64,000 bases of DNA from positions 1 to 64,000 of the forward strand of contig CAUYUJ010000327.1 of the NCBI GenBank assembly GCA_963575745.1, read 5' to 3'. This DNA comes from Prorocentrum cordatum. Taxonomy: Eukaryota. Both the position numbers and the translations under genes were made by a program. Numbering within the stretch: the stretch's first letter is position 1; every line of letters begins with the position of its first letter. The notes under the pieces were generated by a model. That model made no database searches. It was not told the DNA's origin and was given only the letters and a program-made list of their open reading frames with translations. Shown piece after piece: positions 3,513 to 51,092 of this stretch.

Positions 3513-5789
3513 AACGTGGGCGCTCGCTTTTCCCACCGCCTGCGGTGACTCGGCTGCAGGGGCCACGAGCTGCTCAGAGACCCGGCGCTGCGAGGCACAC
3601 ATGCGGCATCGCGGAGAATCACGGCAGGAGCCCCAGTCAGCATCGGTCAACCGACTTTCTATCCTCATCCTTATCCAGACCCCCACCATCGCAGCACCCG
3701 AGTTGGGGATGTACCCCTCGAAACCCGAAGGAAACAGCCTACATCCCCATCTACTTAGGGGGGTGATTCGGCCAGTTGGGCCCAGGTCACGCCCATAGTC
3801 GACTCCTCCAATTCGGTTCGATTGGCTTTCGACGGCTGCCGAATCCGATTCGATTCAACTTCGGCTCCCGATCTGGATCCCGACTGCTCCACGGAGGCCT
3901 TGGCAGCCTGACGATCCCCGAAGAATCGCGAGAGGAGTGCCCGGCCTTGGAGCCAGCGGTGGGTCTGCGGGGTCCCAGCACCGTTCCTCCGCGAGCAGGA
4001 AGGGGTTAGAGAGGCCCGAGGCGCGCTGGGCTCGGTAAGCTCTTGCTGCCCGCCTCGACCTCTTCGGGATTCGGGGGTTGTTCTTGTTCTGGGTTCGAGG
4101 CGCTGGGTTCTTGTTCTGGGTTCGAGGCGCTGGGTTCGGGAAGGGGTGAGAGGCTCGAGGCGCTGGGTTCGGGCCGTGGTCGGACCCTGGGACCGTCCAG
4201 GCCTGTCCTGGCGTGGGAGTGTGCAGCGGGTGGGCCATGCGAGGGGTCCGGGGACCGATCTAGACCGGATTCTGGCCTCACCAGCCCACCCTGACCGACT
4301 TCTTGCCTTCCGCCCCAGACCCCCGCTCTCTTCTGTACTTCCTGAGCCGCATCCGCATCGATCTGCTAGGTCACCCGTGGGGAGCGCGAAGATGATCTCC
4401 GAGGCGGGAATTGATACATGACCACCGCCTGGAGGATCAATGTTCGGGGACCTCGGCAGGCGGTGGATATGGATATGGATGTATGGATGTATGTATGTAT
4501 GTATGTATGTATGTATGTATATATAATATATATATATATATATTAATATATATATATATATTCGGGCCCCCGGGGGGCACCATCTATCCATATACAGGAC
4601 GTCGGTTCCCATGCGGTGGATATATTATGAGTCTCTTGATCAGCGTCGGGGGGGCGTCCCCTCCGCCGACAGCCCCACATCGACCCCCGTCGCGGGCAGC
4701 CACCGCGCGCCGAAGGCGCTCCGACCCCCGTCGCGGCGCGACCACGAGGCGAGGTGGACCCCCGGATGGGGGGTTACACCGCACTCACATCTATACCCCT
4801 GGGTGGGTGTATGTGCGGCCGTTTTTGCGCTGTCATGTGCGCGCATGTGCGCGGCATGTGCCAGTCATGTGCCAGGCCTGTGCGGTCCTTCTTGGATGGA
4901 CTTCCTACTGTGCACGTCGTGCCCGGGCATGTGCGGGGGCATGTGCGCTGTGTTTTGATGTATCCATCATACGCACATGCACGCACAGTCCGACGCACAT
5001 GCGCGCACATGCCTGCACATGCGGGAGGTGTTCGAGAATCGCAGATCTGTCATCGGCACATGCACGCACATGCCTGTGCAACCTCTCTTCGGGAGGCCGC
5101 GCGGGCCCGCACATGCACGCACATGCGGTGAAGCGCGCGGGCGCACATGCGTGCACATCCCAATGCACATGCACGCTCATGCCTTAGGAGCTGTCTGGGA
5201 CCCCTGTGCCTCCAATGCCTCCTGGCCTTCGCAGAGCTAACCTGGGGCGTGCCAGGGTTTCCTGAAAGAGTTTGTTGTGCGTTTAGACTCGCCCGCTGCT
5301 GGCGGGGGCGGTTATTTGCCCCGTTCGTGAGCTGGCGGTGGCGCGCCCGCCTAATAAAATACTCTCCCGCGCGCCTTCTCAGCTCGGCCGGAGAAGCAGG
5401 GATGGGGGGGGGGGGAGGTGGAGGGGAGGGGGAGGAGGGGGGAGCGGAGGAGGCGGGCGCCCCCGGCCACTGGCCAGCCTGCCTGTTCGGCTCGGCCAGA
5501 GGAGAAGGAGGAGGAGAAGGAGGAGGAGGAGGAGGAGGAGGAGGTGAGAGTTGCGAGGCTGTCTCAGGCGAAAGTGGCTTGACGGCCCGAGCTCAGGGAA
5601 TCTCGGAATCGCTGGCCTGGCTCGGCCACCGGCGAGCTCGGCCTGTGCGAATACTGTGCGTACCTGTGCAGTGCATGTGCGGGACGTGCAAGAATGCCGG
5701 GGCCGGCGTTCGTCTCCGGACGCCGGCGCGTTCGCGTCCGGCCAGTTCCGCGTGAGACGTCGTCGGCAATTTGGAGGCCGACGTGCTTT

Positions 5790-6720
5790 GAATGAAGTGA
5801 TCTGGCCACCTTCGCCTGAGACATCCTCGCAACTCTGGTCTCGGAGATGCCCTGCCCCATGGTGGCCCGGCCACTTTCGCTTGAGACATCCTCGGGACTC
5901 TGGGTTTCGAGACGCCCTGAGCTGAGGTGGTTAGACCACTTTCGCATGAGACATCCTCGCAACTCTGACCTCAGAGATCTCCTGCCCCATGCTGGTCAGG
6001 CCACGGTCGCCTGAGACATCCTCGCAAGTCTCGATTCCGATATGCCCCGAGCTGAGGTGGTCAGCCACTGTCGCCTGAGACATCCTCGCAACCCTGATCT
6101 CAATGATGCCCTGCTCGATAGTGTCTCGGCCCCTTTCGCCTGAGACATCCTCGGAACTCAGGGTTCCGAGACGCCCTGAGTTGAGGTGGTTAGACCATTT
6201 TCGCTTTAGACATCCTCGCCCGAGATGCCCTGAGTTGAGCTGTGCAGGCCACTTTTGCCTGAGACATCCTCGCAATTCTGTTCTCAATGATGCCCTGCTC
6301 CATAGTGTCTCGGCCTTTTTCGCCTGAGACCCTCGCAACTCTGGGTTCTGAGATGCCCTGAGCAGGTGGTCAGGCCAGTCCTGCCTGAGACATCCTCGCA
6401 ACTCTGGGCTCCGAGATGCCCTGGGCTGAGGTGGTCAGACCACTCTCCCCAGAGACATCCTCGCAACTCTGACCTCAGAGATCTCCTGCCCCATGGTGGT
6501 CAGGCCACTTTCGCTTGAGACATCCTCACAACTCAGACCTCGGAGGTGTCCTGCCCCATGGTCGTCTGGTCACCTTGACCAGCGACATCCTCGCCACTCT
6601 GGTTTCCAAGATGCCCTGCCCCATGGTGATCCGGCCACGCTTGCCTGAGACATCCTCGGAACTCTGGGTTGCGAAATGCCCCGAGCTCAGGTGGTCAGGC
6701 CACTATCGCCTGCGACATCT
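5790..6720. repeat. 65-bp minisatellite, ~14 units
   Basis: cgcctgagacatcctcg recurs at 5813, 5878, 5943, 6008, 6072, 6137 and onward. Confidence 0.9.
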
Positions 6721-43463: not shown

Positions 43464-44478
43464 TCCCCTCCTCCTCCTCCTCCTCCTCCTCCTCCTCCTC
43501 CTCCCCCCTCCTCCTCCTGGCTCCTCCTCCTCCCCCCTCCCCCGGGGGGCGGGCGCGGGACCGCCGGGCACGGGCACGCAGGCGCCCGGCGCCGCTGCGG
43601 TGCCAGCGGCGGCCTCCACCGACCGGGGGGGGGCGGGGGAGAGGAAACACACGGACACAATAAATCGTCGACTCCCACGAAAGTAGGGGAAAATATGGGA
43701 AGTGGGGGGGAGGACGAAAACCCAGAAACTATGTGGAAACATGTGGAATCCTGGGATTTGTGTATATATATATATACATACATACATACATACATACATA
43801 CATACATACATACATACATGCATACATGCATACATCTATATCTATATATGTGTGTGTGTACCCCTGGGCCCCTTTAGCTATGTGGCAGGAGGTCTGGCCA
43901 GCGCCTGGCCTCTCTGTGGCCAGGCAGGCTGCCCCTCCCGCACGTGGGGCCAGCACGGGTGGCCTCGGTATGTTCCGCCCGTGAGTCCAGCCCCGTGTGT
44001 TTCCACCTCCCCCTCCTCCTCCCACCCTCCTCCTCCTCCTCCTCCTCCTCCTCTCCTCTCCTTCTCCTCCTCCTCCCACCCTCCTCCTCCTTCTCTCACT
44101 CTCCTCCTCCTCCTCCTCCTCCTCCTCCTCCTCCTCCCTCCTCCTCCTCCTCCTCCTCCTCCTTCCCTCCCACCATCCTCCCACCCTCCTCCTCCTTCTC
44201 CCACTCTCCTCCTTCTCCTCCTCCTCCCTCCTCCTCCTCCTCCTCCTCCTCCTCCTCCTCCTCCTCCTCCACCTTCTCCTTCTCCTTCTCCTTCTCCCAT
44301 TCTCCTCCTCCTCCTCCTCCTCCTCCTCCTCCTCCTCTCCTCCTCCTCCTCCTCCCTCCTCCTCCTCCTCCTCCTCCTCCTCCTCCTCCTCCTCCTCCTC
44401 CTGCTCCTCCTCCTCTTTTTTGACTGGGGGGCTCTTGGGGATGGGCCTCAGGACCACACATCACCTTGGCCAAACAGG

Positions 44479-47400
44479 TCAATCCTGCTCTCGCACGGGC
44501 TTTCCCGTGTACGGATTCTTACCGTCCAGGATTCGATCACGATAGAGCTTCCGCCACCGATGGGCGGCAATACCCTTCGTCAAGGGGCCCTCGCATTCCC
44601 GCAACAACTTCTGGGCTCGGGAACGGGCGAAAGCCCCACAAATTCGGCACACAGCATAACCCACCTTCTCGACCACTTCGTGTTCCCGAGGTGGGGGCGG
44701 GGGTGAAACCTGGGACCCAGACCCCCTCGCCTCCGCAGCCCTCTCAGCCGCGGCGGCACGGATCTGGTCCGTCACACACTCGCCGTGGACCAGGGCCTTG
44801 ACTTTCAAACAGGCCCTGCCTTTTGAAATGGTTCCCCCCCATCCAGGGCACAACTCCCGCTTGGCCATGCTGAGACGAGCGGCCACACGGACGAGGCGAG
44901 AGCACTCCAGACATTGCCATTTACCACCCTCTAGGAGCCTAAAACGGTGGGCCCGCTCAGGCGCGACTGCCAAAGGGCGGGCAATACGTTCGCTCCTCCG
45001 AGTCCGACCAGCAGGGGACGGCAGGCTCGTGGTGGTAGCTTTGGCTTCACTAAGATGCACACGGAAATATGCTGCATACTGTAACAGCCTCTTCTGCAAT
45101 TTAAGACACTTCTGGACCTGTTCCACCTTGCACTTTGGGGCGGCATAGGGGTCAGCTCCCTGTCTTGCACGAGCGTCCGCACACCTATTCATGTCATAGT
45201 GCACAAGACTCTCACCAGAAAGACAGGCCCTTTGGACCTTTGTCATGTGAGACTTAATCTTGACTACTTGAAGGGACTCTCCTGGGATGAGACACTGATC
45301 CTCCAGGGCATCCCAAACAAGCTTCCAAAGGTGCGCGGTCATCTGTTCGCTATTCACACAAAATTCTTTGCCCGCCAAGAGCCCCTGAACGACCTGCTTG
45401 CTATCTATCAGGAGCCCTACGAGCCCTACCGAATGCTTTACAGCCTGGTACACGGCCCAGATCTCACAGTGGGCCGACGTGGGCCTCGCAACTGGCACAG
45501 CACCGAACAATGACTGAGTCTCACTTTTCTTTTCAGCGCTCCAGGTGATGGCGGCGAAGCCTCCCGTGGAAACCTCCCCCACGTCGGGGGACAGGGCGCA
45601 TCCGTCCGTGGCCACCCAGCCCGACAGGACCATCTCCCCGTCAGGGTCGCCCCACTGGTACTCGTCGGGCGGCGTGGGCACCTGGTAGTCGGCCACGGGA
45701 TCCGCGATCAAGCCGCGAGCCCATTTCCAGAAGAGCGTGTCACCGCCTCTGCAGCCCTGCTCCTCCTTCGTGGCGGCCGTCTCGCCCAAATGCACCACGT
45801 CTCGAAAATTGTGCTTGAGATTCGGCTCCGTGAGCCCATCACGAATCGTGACACATACATCTGCATCACAAAGAAAATACACATGCCGCAAAGTGCCCTT
45901 CTTCTTGCCGCACAGAGGGCACAGAGGACTCGTGACCTGGCCGCGCTCGTAGCACACCGTCTGTACAGGGTAACCTCCTAGCGCGACCGTTCTGGCACTG
46001 TTGATGTGGTGTCTCGTCCAGGTCTCCGTGGGCTTGGAGCGCATGAGCTGCTTGACTGGCAACAGGAAGGGGGTGGGGCGGAGCGGCTGGCGCTCCTCAT
46101 CAGCGAGCGCCCAGTCCATGAGCTTCTTCTTTGCGACCGCCCTCTCTGCCGACCGCAGGATCTCGAGGGGGGCGACCTCGCGGATGTCCCACTTGCCGTG
46201 GACGCCGTCGAGGATGGTCCAGGCGTCCTCCATGTGCCACCCCAACTCGTGCACCGTCAGAATGGTGGCAGCCGCTGGCCCCCGCACCATCTTCCAGGCG
46301 TCGAACTTGGCGGGGCCATAGGTGAGAGCACGCTGCACCTTGGGCCACTGGCGGCCCCGCGCGTGGGCCATCTCCTTCCGTCTCTCGGGCTGGCCCCAGG
46401 CCTCGCGTAGCCATGCCCGAAGAGGGGCGAGCTTGAGCTGCTCGGCGCCGTCCGTCCTCGGCGCGATCGCCCAGCCCAACGTGCCCGAACGAAAGGTTCC
46501 AGCCCCCGCGCGCACAGCAGCTGTCTTGGCCATGAGGAACTTGAGGACGGCAGGAGGGGTGCCAGCGCAGGTCGCCCCATATGCAACTGACGCTTTGAGG
46601 CCTTGCTGCACCACAGGGCGTACCCTCACCCCTCGTCGCTTGAGGGCCGCCGCCTTGTGCCAGCGGCCTCGGGCAGTCTTGACCCGTCTGGCTCTGGTGG
46701 CCTTCTTCCGAGGGCCCTGGGGTTGGTAGTCCACGCCCAACCAGCGCTCGCTCTCGCCGTGCTGCAGGCCGATGTCCGCCATGGGCTGTGCCAGCTCCTG
46801 TGCCAAGGAGCCGTCGCTGGAGACGAACTTGGACTTGCCTCCCTCACCCTTCGAGACCTTGAGCTGCAGCAGCGACTCCAAGAGGCGGATGAGGGTGCGG
46901 GCCAGGTCGGGGAAGATCACCTTCAGCTGTGTGCTCCTGCCCACCATCCGCAGGGCTAGGTCGTCAACAAACTTCGTGATCTCCAGCTTGGCCCCTGGCC
47001 ATCGGGCCACCACGCCCAGGATCGGATACAGCACAATCTTCAGGAAGCGATTGGCATACTTCGACCCAGCGGGCAACCCCACGTAGGTGCAAATGGCGTC
47101 GGCGACGGCCTGGCCCTTTCGGACCGCCCGAGGGAAAGCGTACGACTCCAGAGAAAGGGCCAATACACTCATGGGTGCTTGCTGCACCATGCCGAGAATC
47201 CAAATCAAATTGAGCGCTACATATTCATACGCCTTCTCCAAATCCATCAAGGCGGTGAGGGACGCGAAGCAGGTACCTTCCAGGGCCTCGTCGTCCAGCA
47301 TCGCTCTCCAAACAGCATGCTCACTGCTGCGCCCTGGTGATGCCCAGTCGTAGGGCCTCACGTGTGCCCGCTCCCACCGCCGAATCAAGGGATCACGAAC

Positions 47401-49479
47401 AGCCTCCCAGATGCGCACTGGCGTGGGAAACAGGGTGATGGGCCTGCCGCCGCCGTCTTCCTTGGCGACCAGGAAAAGTATGGGCATGCGTATGGCCGTG
47501 GGCCATGAGCAGAGCCGCTCGCACAGCATGAGGATGTCCCCGAGGCTGGTCAAGGCCTCGTCACTGAGCCAGGCCAGGTGCCCGAAGTGCCAGCCGTCAA
47601 GCCCGAGCCCCGTCTTCCACTTGTAACTACGGCAGATTGCGCGCACCTGCATCGCGTCGATGTTGGGCAGCTCCTGCGCGTGGGCCATCCGTCGGGCCTG
47701 GACCTGAGCGTCCTGCCACAACTTGGTGTAGTCACCTGACCCAGCGCGCCAAATGCTGGCCCACTCCTGCGCCTCCTGATTGACCGCGAGCTGCGGGTCC
47801 GCTGGCAACTTCAGCTTCTTGGCCGACGAGATGGGCTCCTTCCACGCCTGCTCCCAGTGGCAAATGCGGTGCAGGTAGCCCCCTGAGCCTGGGAACTTTG
47901 CGCCCAGACGCTCGTAGAACCTTTTTGAGCGCTGCCGCATGAGGTGTTGCTCCCTGGTCTGGGCCCGCACCTTGGCGAACTGCTGCAGCGCGAAGATGGC
48001 CTGTGCGCCGATGAAGTGAGGCTCCACGTCGGCGAGGGTGCGCAGCGCTGGTAGGAACCCCGCGCTCCAGGGCTCCAGCTGGTCCCAGTGGTGCCTCGCC
48101 TGGAGCAGCTTCCTCCAGGCCCGTCTGAGCTGGCCTGTGACCTCCTCGTTGTAGGATCGAGGAGGCCCTCCTCCCGAGGTGGTAGCCTGGCCTGCTGGGG
48201 CCTCCGACTTGGCCTGGGGCACCGCTTGGCCCCGCAGGACGCAGCAGGCGAGTTGGCCAATCCAGGCCAGTTCCCCCGCGGCCCAACGCCAGGCCCTGGC
48301 AGGACCTCGATCAGCCACGGGGCTGTCATGCTTCGGAAGAAGCTGTCTCTGCACCACCTCGGGAGTCAAGCCTCGGCCTTCATACATGCGCGCCTCCGAC
48401 TCCGCCCAGCCGAACAGAGACCGAAGCTCGGCCTCAGCTGCAGAGCAGAACCCCCTCCAGCACTGGTCCAGGTGCTGCTGGGAGCCGTGGGGCAGGTCGA
48501 TCTTGGGGTAGCCCTGCGGGATCTCGGGCTGCCTGACAGGTGGCGGCCTGGTGATGGGGTGCTGCTTGGGGCCCTTGAGCACCTGGATCTGGTACGCGTG
48601 CCAGGGCTTGTCGGCGCGGATCCAAGTCGGCCTGTGTGGCCTGTAGGGCATGTTCTCGAAGGACCTCACTGGGCTAAAGATCACTGCCAGCCTCGCATCC
48701 ACCCAGAAGAAGTCGATGACCCGATCCTTGAATTCCTCCACGCCCCGCTTTACCACCTTGGACCTGCATGTGCCTCCTTCCCCTTGCCAGGCCAGAACTT
48801 GGCCCTTGGCCTCCTGGTTCCAGGGGCTGTCGAGGATGGCGTGCGGCTCGTTGTTGAAGTCACCCATGGCCACCCAGGGGATCCTCATCTGGCAGACCCA
48901 ATGCACGATGGTGTCCAACAGGGCCGCGTTTAGGGCCCAGGTGACAGGCTTGCCCGTGAACAAGTACACCGAGAAAAGAGCCACCCATCCAATGCCCTCG
49001 ACCTCGGTCATGCCCAAGCACAGCCTTCCTGCGGCGCCCGCGGGGGAGATGCCCCACGACACCCGGCCTGGCGCCAGGCTGAGGCTCATGCAGCGCGGTG
49101 TGATCAGCGCCACACCCGCGGAGTAGCCGCCCTCTGCCGTGCGCACGGCAGGCGCACCCACAACGCGCCAGCCCCGTCGCTCTTGCGCCGCTGCAGTGAC
49201 GTGGAACCACTCGGCGGGCTTCGCGTGCTCCTGCACCGCTATGACGGGGACGCCGCCGCTCTTGATGAGCTGGTCGATCTCCTCTTCCATGAACTCTTCG
49301 ACGCGAGCCAAGGAGAGATTGGCGTTGAAGGTGGCGGCGATGACGTGTCGGTCCCCTCGCCGCGTGCGTCGGCGCCTCTGAGGCTGCCCCGCTGGGTCAT
49401 CCCCAACGTGCTGCGACCTGCCCCCGAGGTAGGTGGACTGAAAAGTGTTGGGCACGACGGGCGGTGGCTGCCTGCCCAT
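44479..49479 (-). CDS. LINE ORF2 polyprotein: APE endonuclease, reverse transcriptase, CCHC zinc finger, RNase H, two C-terminal Cys/His fingers (start uncertain; frame is open up to the ATG at 50775)
   Basis: APE motifs TFNAN, VQEH, MGDFN, RVIDFFWV, RPH (~48620-49350); RT motifs GLDG, KEDGGGRPI, DLEKAYE, GLPAGS, FVDD (46960-46971), WLGV; CPLCG..H...C; RNase H ATDG, CEIWAV, IDS, IKSH, NRCAD (~45150-45625); WQCLEC and VCRIC. First in-frame ATG after the ORF1 stop is at 49479 (gccATGg), giving 1666 aa. Confidence 0.93.
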   Translation of the reverse strand: MGRQPPPVVPNTFQSTYLGGRSQHVGDDPAGQPQRRRRTRRGDRHVIAATFNANLSLARVEEFMEEEIDQLIKSGGVPVIAVQEHAKPAEWFHVTAAAQERRGWRVVGAPAVRTAEGGYSAGVALITPRCMSLSLAPGRVSWGISPAGAAGRLCLGMTEVEGIGWVALFSVYLFTGKPVTWALNAALLDTIVHWVCQMRIPWVAMGDFNNEPHAILDSPWNQEAKGQVLAWQGEGGTCRSKVVKRGVEEFKDRVIDFFWVDARLAVIFSPVRSFENMPYRPHRPTWIRADKPWHAYQIQVLKGPKQHPITRPPPVRQPEIPQGYPKIDLPHGSQQHLDQCWRGFCSAAEAELRSLFGWAESEARMYEGRGLTPEVVQRQLLPKHDSPVADRGPARAWRWAAGELAWIGQLACCVLRGQAVPQAKSEAPAGQATTSGGGPPRSYNEEVTGQLRRAWRKLLQARHHWDQLEPWSAGFLPALRTLADVEPHFIGAQAIFALQQFAKVRAQTREQHLMRQRSKRFYERLGAKFPGSGGYLHRICHWEQAWKEPISSAKKLKLPADPQLAVNQEAQEWASIWRAGSGDYTKLWQDAQVQARRMAHAQELPNIDAMQVRAICRSYKWKTGLGLDGWHFGHLAWLSDEALTSLGDILMLCERLCSWPTAIRMPILFLVAKEDGGGRPITLFPTPVRIWEAVRDPLIRRWERAHVRPYDWASPGRSSEHAVWRAMLDDEALEGTCFASLTALMDLEKAYEYVALNLIWILGMVQQAPMSVLALSLESYAFPRAVRKGQAVADAICTYVGLPAGSKYANRFLKIVLYPILGVVARWPGAKLEITKFVDDLALRMVGRSTQLKVIFPDLARTLIRLLESLLQLKVSKGEGGKSKFVSSDGSLAQELAQPMADIGLQHGESERWLGVDYQPQGPRKKATRARRVKTARGRWHKAAALKRRGVRVRPVVQQGLKASVAYGATCAGTPPAVLKFLMAKTAAVRAGAGTFRSGTLGWAIAPRTDGAEQLKLAPLRAWLREAWGQPERRKEMAHARGRQWPKVQRALTYGPAKFDAWKMVRGPAAATILTVHELGWHMEDAWTILDGVHGKWDIREVAPLEILRSAERAVAKKKLMDWALADEERQPLRPTPFLLPVKQLMRSKPTETWTRHHINSARTVALGGYPVQTVCYERGQVTSPLCPLCGKKKGTLRHVYFLCDADVCVTIRDGLTEPNLKHNFRDVVHLGETAATKEEQGCRGGDTLFWKWARGLIADPVADYQVPTPPDEYQWGDPDGEMVLSGWVATDGCALSPDVGEVSTGGFAAITWSAEKKSETQSLFGAVPVARPTSAHCEIWAVYQAVKHSVGLVGLLIDSKQVVQGLLAGKEFCVNSEQMTAHLWKLVWDALEDQCLIPGESLQVVKIKSHMTKVQRACLSGESLVHYDMNRCADARARQGADPYAAPKCKVEQVQKCLKLQKRLLQYAAYFRVHLSEAKATTTSLPSPAGRTRRSERIARPLAVAPERAHRFRLLEGGKWQCLECSRLVRVAARLSMAKRELCPGWGGTISKGRACLKVKALVHGECVTDQIRAAAAERAAEARGSGSQVSPPPPPREHEVVEKVGYAVCRICGAFARSRAQKLLRECEGPLTKGIAAHRWRKLYRDRILDGKNPYTGKPVREQD

Positions 49480-49642
49480 GGCCGCGGGCGCGCAGTAGCC
49501 GTCGCCCTGGCCAGCGTACGCGTCCCCGCCGCCCTCAGAGAAGCCACCCCCGTGCAGCTCCTCGTCGTAGAGGCCCTCACCCGTCCAGAACTGGCCGTCC
49601 CCGTAGGTGGTCCAGTCGATCAAGGGCGGGCCCGCTGGCCCA

Positions 49643-50791
49643 TCAAAGCGACGCCTGGGGAAGCGCCTCCTCGCCGTGGTGGTCGTAGAAGGAACCCAGC
49701 ACCGCCCGCTTGGCGGCTCGCTCCTCCTCGGGCAGCCCGCTGGGGTACTGGTCCACCAGCTCGTCTCGCTTGCGCTTCTGCTCCTCCACTGCGTCGCCGC
49801 CGCCATCGGCCGAGGCCTCAGCAGCAGGCCCCCCTGGGGGCGCGGCCGCCGCCGCTGCGCCAGGCCCCCCAGTAGGCGCGGCGGCCGCAGCAGCGGGAGC
49901 CCCTGAGGCCTGAGGGAGCTCCTTGACCAGCTTGAGCAAGCTCTGGAGGGACTCCACGAGTGGCTTGGGCACCGAGTCGCCGTCGCCCTCGGTGTCCCCC
50001 ACCAACTTCTCCAGGTTTGCCACGAGCTGGCTGATGACCGCCTGCCCGCAATGTGGGCTACCGCCGAGAGGACCCGCTGCCCCCACTGGGGCCTGCTCCT
50101 CCGCCACGACTCGCCTGGCCAATTGAGCCTTTTCCTCCTGCAGCTGCTCCAACTCCTTGCTGGCCGCCTCCTGCATGCGCTGTGCCTCCGCCAGGCGCTG
50201 CTGCAGCTCGGGCACGACCTCGTCGCGCTGGCGTGCGAGCTTGCGCTGCGCGGCGGCCATCTTGCCCTCGAGTGCCTGCAGCTGCAGGTGCAAAGGCTTG
50301 CCTGCCCGCTTCTGGGCGATGAGGTTCGCCCTCTCCGCCCGCTTGGCCTCGATGATGGAGCCGAGACTGGGGTCGGCGAGGGACTCCAGCGTGCCGATCG
50401 ACTTGTCGAGCACCGCGATGGGGTCGGGCTGCTCGGCTGCCTTGGACTTGAGCAGGTCAGTGCCAGCCCCGAAGTAGCCCCAAGCAGCGCCAGCAGTGCC
50501 GCGAGGAGCGGGGCCAGCCACGCCCTTGTCCTTGCCCTTGTTCTCCTTGCCCTTGCCCTTGGCCTTGCCCCCAGCTGGGGGGTCGGCCCTCTGCCACGGT
50601 CGCCGCACCGGTGAGGAGCGGGACGCACGCGTGATGGCCACCTGGATGTGCTTCGGCGCGGGGGCGAAGCACTGGCGGCACTGCATCTTGGTCGCGAAGT
50701 TACCTCCAGTGCCACAGTGTCCACACGTCCAGGGCTCGGCCCCCTGGGGCGAAGAAAGAAACTGATGCGACGCATCCTTCCACGGTGCCAT
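49643..50791 (-). CDS. LINE ORF1 (382 aa): RanBP2-type zinc finger, K/G-rich segment, coiled coil
   Basis: ATG at 50791 is the first ATG downstream of the SL; WTCGHCGTGGNFATKMQCRQC; GKAKGKGKENKGKDKG; heptad-like Q/E/L/A-rich stretch; high GC3; stop TGA at 49643-49645. Confidence 0.85.
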   Translation of the reverse strand: MAPWKDASHQFLSSPQGAEPWTCGHCGTGGNFATKMQCRQCFAPAPKHIQVAITRASRSSPVRRPWQRADPPAGGKAKGKGKENKGKDKGVAGPAPRGTAGAAWGYFGAGTDLLKSKAAEQPDPIAVLDKSIGTLESLADPSLGSIIEAKRAERANLIAQKRAGKPLHLQLQALEGKMAAAQRKLARQRDEVVPELQQRLAEAQRMQEAASKELEQLQEEKAQLARRVVAEEQAPVGAAGPLGGSPHCGQAVISQLVANLEKLVGDTEGDGDSVPKPLVESLQSLLKLVKELPQASGAPAAAAAAPTGGPGAAAAAAPPGGPAAEASADGGGDAVEEQKRKRDELVDQYPSGLPEEERAAKRAVLGSFYDHHGEEALPQASL

Positions 50792-50912
50792 CAAACACGC
50801 TGTGACTGGCAAAGAGGACGAGCTGGGCAGTTGGGTACCGAAATGTGCCCTGACTGGTGATGTCAGGGGGAAAGCTGCTGGGGCCGTGTGCGCCTCTTGG
50901 GCGCCCCCCAAT

Positions 50913-50958
50913 GCCAGAATGTCTCCGTCCGCTGCTGACGCCTGGGCCACGCTACGGA
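50913..50958 (-). other. Decayed (relict) spliced-leader copies in the LINE 5' UTR
   Basis: TCCGTAGC-GTGGCCCAGG (50958-50941) directly follows the SL; CGGAGACATTCTGGC (50927-50913) matches CGTAGCCATTTTGGC at 12/15. Confidence 0.65.
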
Positions 50959-50980
50959 CTTGAGCCAAAATGGCTACGGC
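50959..50980 (-). other. Perfect dinoflagellate spliced leader (DinoSL) at the LINE 5' end
   Basis: Minus strand reads GCCGTAGCCATTTTGGCTCAAG, matching the consensus DCCGTAGCCATTTTGGCTCAAG; the first G may be shared with the TSD. Confidence 0.97.
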
Positions 50981-51061
50981 CTGCTCCTCCTCCTCCTTTT
51001 CCTCCTCCTCCTCCTCCTCCCACCCTCCTCCTCCTCCTCCTCCTGCTCCTCCTCCTCCTCG

Positions 51062-51092
<31 letters not shown>

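Follow-up and report, generated by a model that had tools for sequence, protein, structure and literature searches.

Long interspersed nuclear elements (LINEs) are known to keep their 5' ends by means of an internal promoter or a ribozyme, and a locus of the dinoflagellate Prorocentrum cordatum raises the question of whether the spliced leader (SL) of the host can do the same. The locus lies within the first 64,000 nucleotides (nt) of the forward strand of contig CAUYUJ010000327.1 (GenBank assembly GCA_963575745.1), a stretch referred to here as the window. It consists of a 6.56-kb retrotransposon of the type lacking long terminal repeats (non-LTR), carried by the minus strand, to which all its coordinates refer, and its first base is also that of the 22-nt spliced leader found in dinoflagellates (DinoSL). 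The original prediction, made from the letters of the window, proposed that such an element moves as an SL-trans-spliced mRNA and uses host trans-splicing to cut itself out of read-through transcripts. Our analysis makes it likely that the transposition intermediate is indeed a mature SL-trans-spliced, polyadenylated mRNA that is copied, in one cycle after another, as far as its first base, and the window element is best explained as an intact, recently inserted autonomous non-LTR retrotransposon of a dinoflagellate.

The element is bounded by two perfect copies of the 15-nt target-site duplication (TSD) GAGGAGGAGGAGCAG, located at 50981-50995 on the 5' side and at 44401-44415 on the 3' side, and over 50995-44401 the order reads TSD, SL, leader, coding region, 57-nt 3' untranslated region (UTR; 44478-44422), A6 tail (44421-44416) and TSD. 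The 5' TSD copy ends in AG and directly abuts the SL. Both the perfect 15-16 bp TSD and the 57-nt 3' UTR with its A6 tail had been announced by the original prediction and were recovered at these positions; the TSD is of low complexity and lengthens to 16 nt, with the SL copy shortened to 21 nt, if the G at 50980 is assigned to it instead. Part of the A6 tail could be derived from the target since the upstream flank reads AAAAG ahead of the TSD. Both flanks form a single (TCC)n/(GGA)n array (44002-44415 and 50980-51087), and excision of the element together with one TSD copy restores this microsatellite in phase. Arrays of (GGA)n with the same GCAG interruption are found at nine sites of the window (for example 13775, 16470, 21424, 39738, 40474, 40510 and 51043), which reduces the weight of the TSD taken alone. 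Within the 414-nt 3' flank the TSD 15-mer is present only once, exactly at the junction, and we accepted the 15-nt repeat as a genuine TSD. Besides the microsatellite, no long direct repeats were observed at the ends of the element, and no second copy of it was detected in the window by blastn and tblastn.

Could the junction be an assembly artefact, with transcript-derived sequence joined into the scaffold? Repeat flanks are hard to assemble and the junction was masked as repeat in the contig mapping described below, but the presence of a TSD and the unbroken phase of the microsatellite once the insert is removed argue against such a join, and the same arrangement of SL and LINE is found in independent metagenome contigs. 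We consider this explanation very improbable.

The DinoSL at 50959-50980, GCCGTAGCCATTTTGGCTCAAG, matches the canonical sequence at 22 of 22 positions, as had been claimed. A search with the 21-nt DinoSL core, allowing up to three mismatches, returned this site alone in the 64 kb (50979-50959, no mismatch), where 0.01 matches were expected from 100 shuffles. No other SL-like site was detected in the window with up to three mismatches in 21 nt, up to two in 13-15-mers or at least 10 of 11 matches in the 3' core, and the two further SL-relic retrogene candidates proposed for the window were not recovered at these thresholds. The SL is followed by a 167-nt leader (50792-50958) which contains no ATG, in agreement with the ATG-free UTR of about 170 nt described earlier. 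This leader opens with TCCGTAGCG at 50958, the SL continuing into TCCGTAGC and then GTGGCCCAGG, and we read this continuation as a decayed full-length SL that suffered a 4-nt deletion. In an alignment made by eye, the putative relic TCCGTAGCGTGGCCCAGG (50941-50958) has SL positions 1-8 as its first 8 nt, then a 4-nt gap, then TGGCCCAGG against TGGCTCAAG with seven matches out of nine. At this one fixed position, a run of 8 matching nt has a chance probability of about 5e-5. Neither a ribozyme nor any other 5' RNA family was found in the element using Rfam (E-values up to 1), and the fold of the leader is ordinary (z = -0.35). The SL and the entire leader are free of stops and in frame with the first open reading frame (ORF1; 50980-49646), the SL being translatable as AVAILAQ; this continuity is probably due to chance in GC-rich DNA.

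The coding capacity of the element was compared with its protein homologues. The nearest homologues of the long frame, ORF2, were P0001 (93% identity), P0002 (87%) and P0003 (38%), all named Prorocentrum cordatum by NCBI, and more distant ones were P0004 (30%) and P0005 (26%). ORF1 (49643-50791, 382 amino acids, aa) has a RanBP2-like zinc finger of the C4 type at its N-terminus, whose Pfam match (PF00641, E = 0.0066) stays below the cut-off, and further contains a stretch rich in K and G and a middle part resembling a coiled coil. The ORF2 frame (44479-50775) lies in the +1 frame, runs without a stop across ORF1 and encodes 2098 aa when read from its first AUG (AUG2); the first ATG past the ORF1 stop, at 49479, gives a 1666-aa product and could be an alternative start of ORF2. 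Of the original claim of two intact ORFs, the intactness was borne out for both, whereas their arrangement was not, since the ORF2 frame overlaps all of ORF1 instead of following it.

Domain assignments relied on the homologues to a large part. The whole ORF2 protein of the window yielded no Pfam match, reverse transcriptase (RT) families (RVT) included, and its two Pfam signals were both faint (Exo_endo_phos 0.0057, zf-RVT 0.037). P0004, which itself hits RVT_1, aligned with window ORF2 over the RT (2e-54), the endonuclease (EN; 6e-16) and the RNase H (2e-13). In ORF2 alignment A1, made of six members without the window element, RVT_1 was matched by two of the six (best 9e-9) and RNase_H by one. 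The APE-type EN (48673-49332) is supported by PF03372 (E = 0.0057, below the cut-off), by the P0004 alignment, by its fold and by invariant residues. The RT core (46780-47682) displays GGGRPI and FVDD motifs with invariant D839 and D840. The RNase H (45160-45627) corresponds to the matching region of P0004, has an RNase_H domain in a homologue and gave weak PDB matches with the A1 profile (E = 0.11-0.8). Conservation of the C-terminal CxxC region (44482-45159) extends to the very last residues of the protein in P0003 and also in related loci L001, L012, L014 and L015, introduced below. Residues invariant across a six-sequence alignment were N52, E84, D207, D256 and H282 in the EN, FVDD in the RT, and TDG, E and D in the RNase H. 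An AlphaFold model of ORF2 residues 1-1000 had a mean predicted local distance difference test (pLDDT) score of 46 and was poor beyond the EN, and no conclusion was drawn from it on the RT fold. Its EN part (residues 45-290, pLDDT about 70-80) matched ExoIII, APE1 and the TRAS1 EN with E-values of 2e-9 to 5e-7, as well as chains of human L1 ORF2p. A PDB sequence search with ORF2 alone gave no useful match. These domains, arranged as EN, RT, RNase H and C-terminal CxxC region, make the element an APE-type LINE.

If the SL is the regular terminus of such elements, it should be met again at the 5' ends of relatives. Metagenome contigs were scanned with the ORF2 alignment, which delivered 78 loci of 22-38% aa identity, and all of them were searched for the SL on both strands. 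The 5' region, as judged from ORF maps, was retained in 14 of the 78. The original prediction had asked whether other copies lack the SL at their start; seen across the clade, four of these 14 loci carry a full DinoSL, nine a relic-like terminus, and one, L024, neither. The full SL TCCGTAGCCATTTTGGCTCAAG is located on the coding strand at 75-96 in L002 and at 76-97 in both L026 and L036, and with one mismatch at 133-154 in L005. In all four it stands upstream of an ORF1 with zinc-finger-like motifs and of a long ORF2, and the flanks ahead of it are mutually unrelated. When the 5' regions of the window element and of these four loci were aligned, the SL was the sole block common to the five, with 21 invariant columns. 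In three of the full-SL loci the SL is preceded by about 75 nt of flanking sequence, a length that might be the reach of a single read past a high-copy repeat.

A quick RT tree placed the full-SL elements in at least four separate lineages, the window element grouping with P0002 and P0003. The tree comprised 51 rows (the window element, P0002-P0005 and 46 loci); P0001 was left out, as were 32 loci whose best RT match covered fewer than 300 columns or contained a stop. Such a distribution bears on the possibility that the window element is a one-off processed copy, the family moving through unspliced transcripts from an internal promoter of its own and the SL-bearing copy being a by-product. 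A single copy of the family was seen at its 5' end, and relatives can lack a full SL, as do L024 and the nine relic-type loci. Against this stand the full SLs in at least four separate lineages, the intact ORFs of the window copy, and arrays of relics which indicate that SL-bearing copies in L005, L036 and the window lineage were expressed, re-spliced and recopied. We judge a one-off origin unlikely.

Two other ways of joining an SL to a LINE can be weighed on the same loci. LINE RTs are known to switch templates. The RT could have jumped from the LINE RNA onto an SL donor RNA at the end of cDNA synthesis, with a product resembling the U6-L1 chimeras of mammals. In five out of five elements, what is joined is the 22-nt exon alone, ending exactly in ...CTCAAG and followed by no SL-intron sequence, and it adjoins the full-length leader of the element rather than a truncated body, which leaves template switching little room; we hold its probability to be very small. 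Site-specific LINEs such as SLACS, CZAR, CRE1/2 and NeSL-1 insert at a fixed site in SL RNA genes by means of a restriction-like endonuclease. An SL sequence abutting a LINE is what these elements would also display, and they share with the window element the joining of a non-LTR element to spliced-leader sequence. The window element differs in having an APE-type EN, in lying in a microsatellite and in carrying the spliced exon alone inside its TSD, and the flanks of L002, L005, L026 and L036 all differ. The original statement that the insertion does not lie in an SL RNA gene is upheld by the (GGA)n microsatellite that forms both flanks and by the position of the SL inside the TSD, and we give insertion into an SL RNA gene practically no credence.

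Recycling of SL-capped mRNAs into dinoflagellate genomes is established (Slamovits and Keeling 2008, as cited in PMC3229502; PMC5585692), and in the account given in PMC3229502 the cut in relic SLs is at an AG and follows SL nucleotide 7. In L005 the SL is followed by the classic 15-nt relic CCATTTTGGCTCAAG and then by a decayed full-length relic, and in L036 by a decayed relic; the rule of a cut after SL nucleotide 7 explains the relics of L005 and L036. Just past the SL, L002 reads GCCGT and L026 reads TCCG, resembling the start of another SL. An old SL standing behind a new one, as in L005, L036 and, in decayed form, the window, implies that a DNA-encoded SL was transcribed from further upstream and spliced again; relic arrays thus point to repeated cycles and to a transcription start outside the element. 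For the full-length relics, those of the window and of the third unit in L005, the acceptor has to lie exactly on the boundary. An AG of the flank abuts the SL in the window (50981-50982, GCAG/G, the slash marking the boundary) and in L005 (131-132, CTAG/T), while none does so in L002, L026 and L036. Such a flank AG could act as trans-splice acceptor, which would account for the full-length relics.

Eight of the nine relic-type loci (L012, L014, L023, L027, L029, L040, L041 and L047) form a group whose 5' boundary was set by the onset of homology between loci, independently of the SL, with unrelated flanks on the other side. In eight out of eight, this boundary falls on (G)AGGTTGGCTCAAG. The relic-like termini were mapped to L012:180, L014:127, L023:265, L027:99, L029:306, L040:143, L041:72, L047:77 and, for the ninth locus, L046:17, which starts with GATTTGGCTCGAG beside a (CA)n flank. 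The terminus of L012, CCAGGTTGGCTCAAG, matches 13 of the 15 positions of the classic relic. All nine, with termini of 13-15 nt, keep TTGGCTCAAG at their extreme 5' end among copies that are 65-78% identical.

ORF maps were also viewed for 19 of the remaining 64 loci. Nine of them start inside an open frame (L001, L004, L007, L008, L010, L016, L031, L037 and L048), L015 and L042 begin inside the element as shown by homology to longer loci, L003 and L043 look 5'-truncated, L021, L050 and L066 have broken frames, and the rest consist of internal parts only. SL-like matches away from the 5' boundary were few (L003 at 236, L030 at 3606, L034 at 5148, and L018 on the opposite strand). The one in L034, CCATTTTGGCGCAAG at 5145-5159, stands downstream of the LINE ORF and may be the start of another retrocopy. 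The 9-mer TGGCTCAAG, with at most one mismatch, was counted 26 times on the coding strand vs 8 times on the opposite one in 61,990 nt lying upstream of where ORF2 is estimated to start in 32 loci.

An SL that is exact to the exon, an A tail and a TSD are together as expected from target-primed reverse transcription of a mature trans-spliced mRNA, and the four full-SL loci, the relic arrays and the decayed second SL of the window support the proposed SL-trans-spliced intermediate at clade level. The cycle would run as follows. A resident copy would be transcribed from upstream of its own 5' end, and trans-splicing by the host would join a new SL to an AG located there or close by, thereby trimming the transcript, capping it and making it translatable. 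Target-primed reverse transcription of the mature mRNA to its first base would then provide each new copy with a 22-nt DinoSL at its start. With the closing AG of the DNA-encoded SL as acceptor, the SL would be replaced by a new one and no relic would remain; use of the AG at SL positions 6-7 would leave a 15-nt relic, and use of a flank AG abutting the SL would leave a full-length one. For translation, scanning would proceed from the SL cap through the ATG-free leader to two close AUGs. The trans-splicing step, the upstream transcription start and the decoding route are the parts of this cycle that we infer; the relic arrays of L005, L036 and the window leader are what the original idea of read-through followed by trans-splicing predicts.

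A different role for the DNA-encoded SL, compatible with trans-splicing, is that of a promoter or initiator acting through its TTTT and kept by selection, in which case the element would not be promoter-less. TTTT, TTTG and TTGG motifs of relic SLs have been proposed as retrogene promoters (Song et al. 2017, PMC5585692, in the part concerned with relic SLs; repeated in PMC9651163), and the retention of TTGGCTCAAG at the terminus of the nine relic-type loci would fit such a function. A start at or behind the SL cannot, in contrast, give an old SL behind a new one, and such arrays exist. We find this alternative doubtful, while granting it better prospects than a one-off processed copy.

Several observations weigh against an SL-trans-spliced intermediate used over repeated cycles. 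Within the family of the window element itself, the SL terminus was seen on one copy only, and the support comes from DNA sequence. The perfect preservation of the DNA-encoded SL could reflect selection, for instance on a TTTT-type promoter. In the nine relic-type loci no full SL precedes the relic; these families may start their RNA at the relic, use a template that was not trans-spliced or have a 5' end formed in another way, and as such they misfit the simple model. L024 has neither SL nor ORF1, and tandem repeats of about 65 nt precede its long ORF. These repeats (5650-6300 of a 16.5-kb contig) follow a (GT)n run and recall the monomer-type 5' UTRs of other LINEs; L024 shows a different 5' solution within the same clade. 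The relatives are known from anonymous metagenome contigs which probably represent collapsed repeats and whose two ends possibly stem from different copies. No TSD was found in the related loci, and the printed ends of L002 and L046 (SL and A-runs), compared by eye, did not match, as is expected of collapsed repeat contigs. The TSD of the window element, finally, is a low-complexity sequence whose 15-mer is found nine times in the window.

The overlap of the two ORFs was analyzed in 12 elements (the window element, L002, L005, L026, L036, L046, L027, L014, L041, L023, L029 and L047). In 11 of them the ORF2 frame is free of stops across the whole of ORF1, L047 having a single stop. Shuffling the codon order of ORF1 led to an expectation of 5.5-20 stops in the ORF2 frame (P at most 0.003 for each element), and the third frame mostly contained the expected number. 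AUG2 follows the first AUG (AUG1) by 5-16 nt in 10 of the 12; in the window element it lies 16 nt past AUG1, with an A at -3 (ggaaggATGc), AUG1 having a weak context (tgtttgATGg). The leader, from SL or relic to AUG1, was ATG-free in 13 of 14 elements, with a chance of 0.016-0.29 per leader. These features suggest a dicistronic mRNA with ORF1 nested in ORF2, which would be scanned from the SL cap and decoded by leaky scanning or by means of the close AUGs. Matsuda and Dreher are said to have described in 2006 dicistronic mRNAs of the Tymovirus type, with close AUGs and overlapping ORFs. The likeness lies in two AUGs 5-16 nt apart that open two long overlapping frames, and the difference in that the window element is a retrotransposon rather than a virus and is known here from its sequence.

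A 2A-like motif, (I/V)GEAxNPGP, was found in the long frame of 16 loci (L001, L007, L008, L012, L023, L024, L025, L029, L036, L037, L040-L043, L047 and L048), where it lies between the ORF1 overlap and the EN, after a hydrophobic stretch. A 2A-like peptide is also present at the N-termini of P0004 and P0005, and no NPGP motif was found in the three forward frames of the window element. Peptides of the 2A type have been described in non-LTR elements (PMC3708506, in part).

The family of the window element appears to be numerous. In run X1, 623 contig pieces are spread along the whole element, 82 of them at 99% identity or more, 291 at 95-99%, 174 at 90-95% and 76 below 90%. The kind of this run was guessed to be DNA, it may be the sample of the window itself, and it is silent on the SL as 50972-51015 were masked as repeat. 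These pieces indicate that many close copies of the element exist. Besides X1, three metagenome runs carry the family. Contigs 85-99% alike to the element were seen in environmental runs (coded X2-X5; marine and other metagenomes) belonging to two further studies, and on this sequence evidence the family or its host is present in field samples. No relatives of ORF1 were detected in viral or metagenome contigs, and none of ORF2 alignment A1 in viral or genome contigs. The translated SL, leader and ORF1, used as a query, had no match among proteins of 66-210 aa, nor among the best 8000 word-sharing candidates of 244-779 aa.

How do these elements relate to other systems in which a LINE obtains its 5' end? 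R2 and other such LINEs share the transcript of a host gene, from which a self-cleaving ribozyme releases them. The window element, as we propose to read it, resembles them in having no promoter of its own and in deriving its 5' end from the processing of a longer RNA, with the difference that the host trans-spliceosome would do the processing and would supply the cap as well. In L1Tc of trypanosomes, the APE domain is followed by RT and RNase H and, at the C-terminus, by a part that binds zinc. L1Tc and ingi resemble the window element in residing in a host that trans-splices all its mRNAs, in a similar domain order and in the 2A-like NPGP of the 16 related loci, whereas the window element has no detected ribozyme, no NPGP and an SL as its 5' end. 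In the relevant parts of the published accounts, L1Tc is transcribed into unspliced RNA and relies on an internal promoter and a ribozyme (PMC1874656, PMC3383444), which in L1Tc/ingi are the Pr77 promoter and a hepatitis delta virus (HDV)-like ribozyme at the 5' end (PMC1874656, PMC3383444, PMC3185411).

A close parallel is the mRNA recycling of dinoflagellates. The window element shares with recycled mRNAs the DNA-encoded SL at the 5' end, the relic behind it and the implied cycle of transcription, trans-splicing, reverse transcription and reinsertion, and L005 has the classic 15-nt relic. The difference is that the recycled mRNA is here the retrotransposon's own, the element possessing EN, RT, TSD and A tail, and that the SL is its regular 5' terminus. 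The Gene Ontology term 'RNA-dependent DNA replication' is reported as enriched among SL-tagged genes (Song et al. 2017, PMC5585692), and the portions of that article considered here do not describe LINE termini. Ty1/copia is favoured as RT source for dinoflagellate retrogenes in the relevant passage of PMC6050394, and LINEs of Symbiodiniaceae are called old and inactive in that of PMC10235124. In the literature searched, whose coverage was incomplete and excluded supplements, no description of a DinoSL at the 5' terminus of a LINE was found.

Dinoflagellate genomes are rich in SL-relic retrogenes. That a LINE is found intact, has a fresh TSD and makes copies starting at base 1 of the SL shows such machinery to be active in one bloom-forming species or more, where SL-capped mRNAs are reverse-transcribed over their whole length and integrated in the manner typical of target-primed reverse transcription. 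If the proposed intermediate is correct, most copies of the Prorocentrum family would begin with DCCGTAGCCATTTTGGCTCAAG, with or without relics behind it, and would have unrelated flanks and TSDs of their own. It is tempting to go further and to propose, as a tentative idea that we think has somewhat less than an even chance, that an entire clade of dinoflagellate LINEs gave up promoter and ribozyme and lets the SL machinery set, cap and renew its 5' end in each cycle, that its mRNA is dicistronic, with a 2A peptide releasing the enzyme in many lineages, and that, since its RT copies SL-capped mRNAs as far as base 1, it is the engine of the thousands of SL-tagged retrogenes. Host trans-splicing would be a third way for a LINE to keep its 5' end without an upstream promoter.

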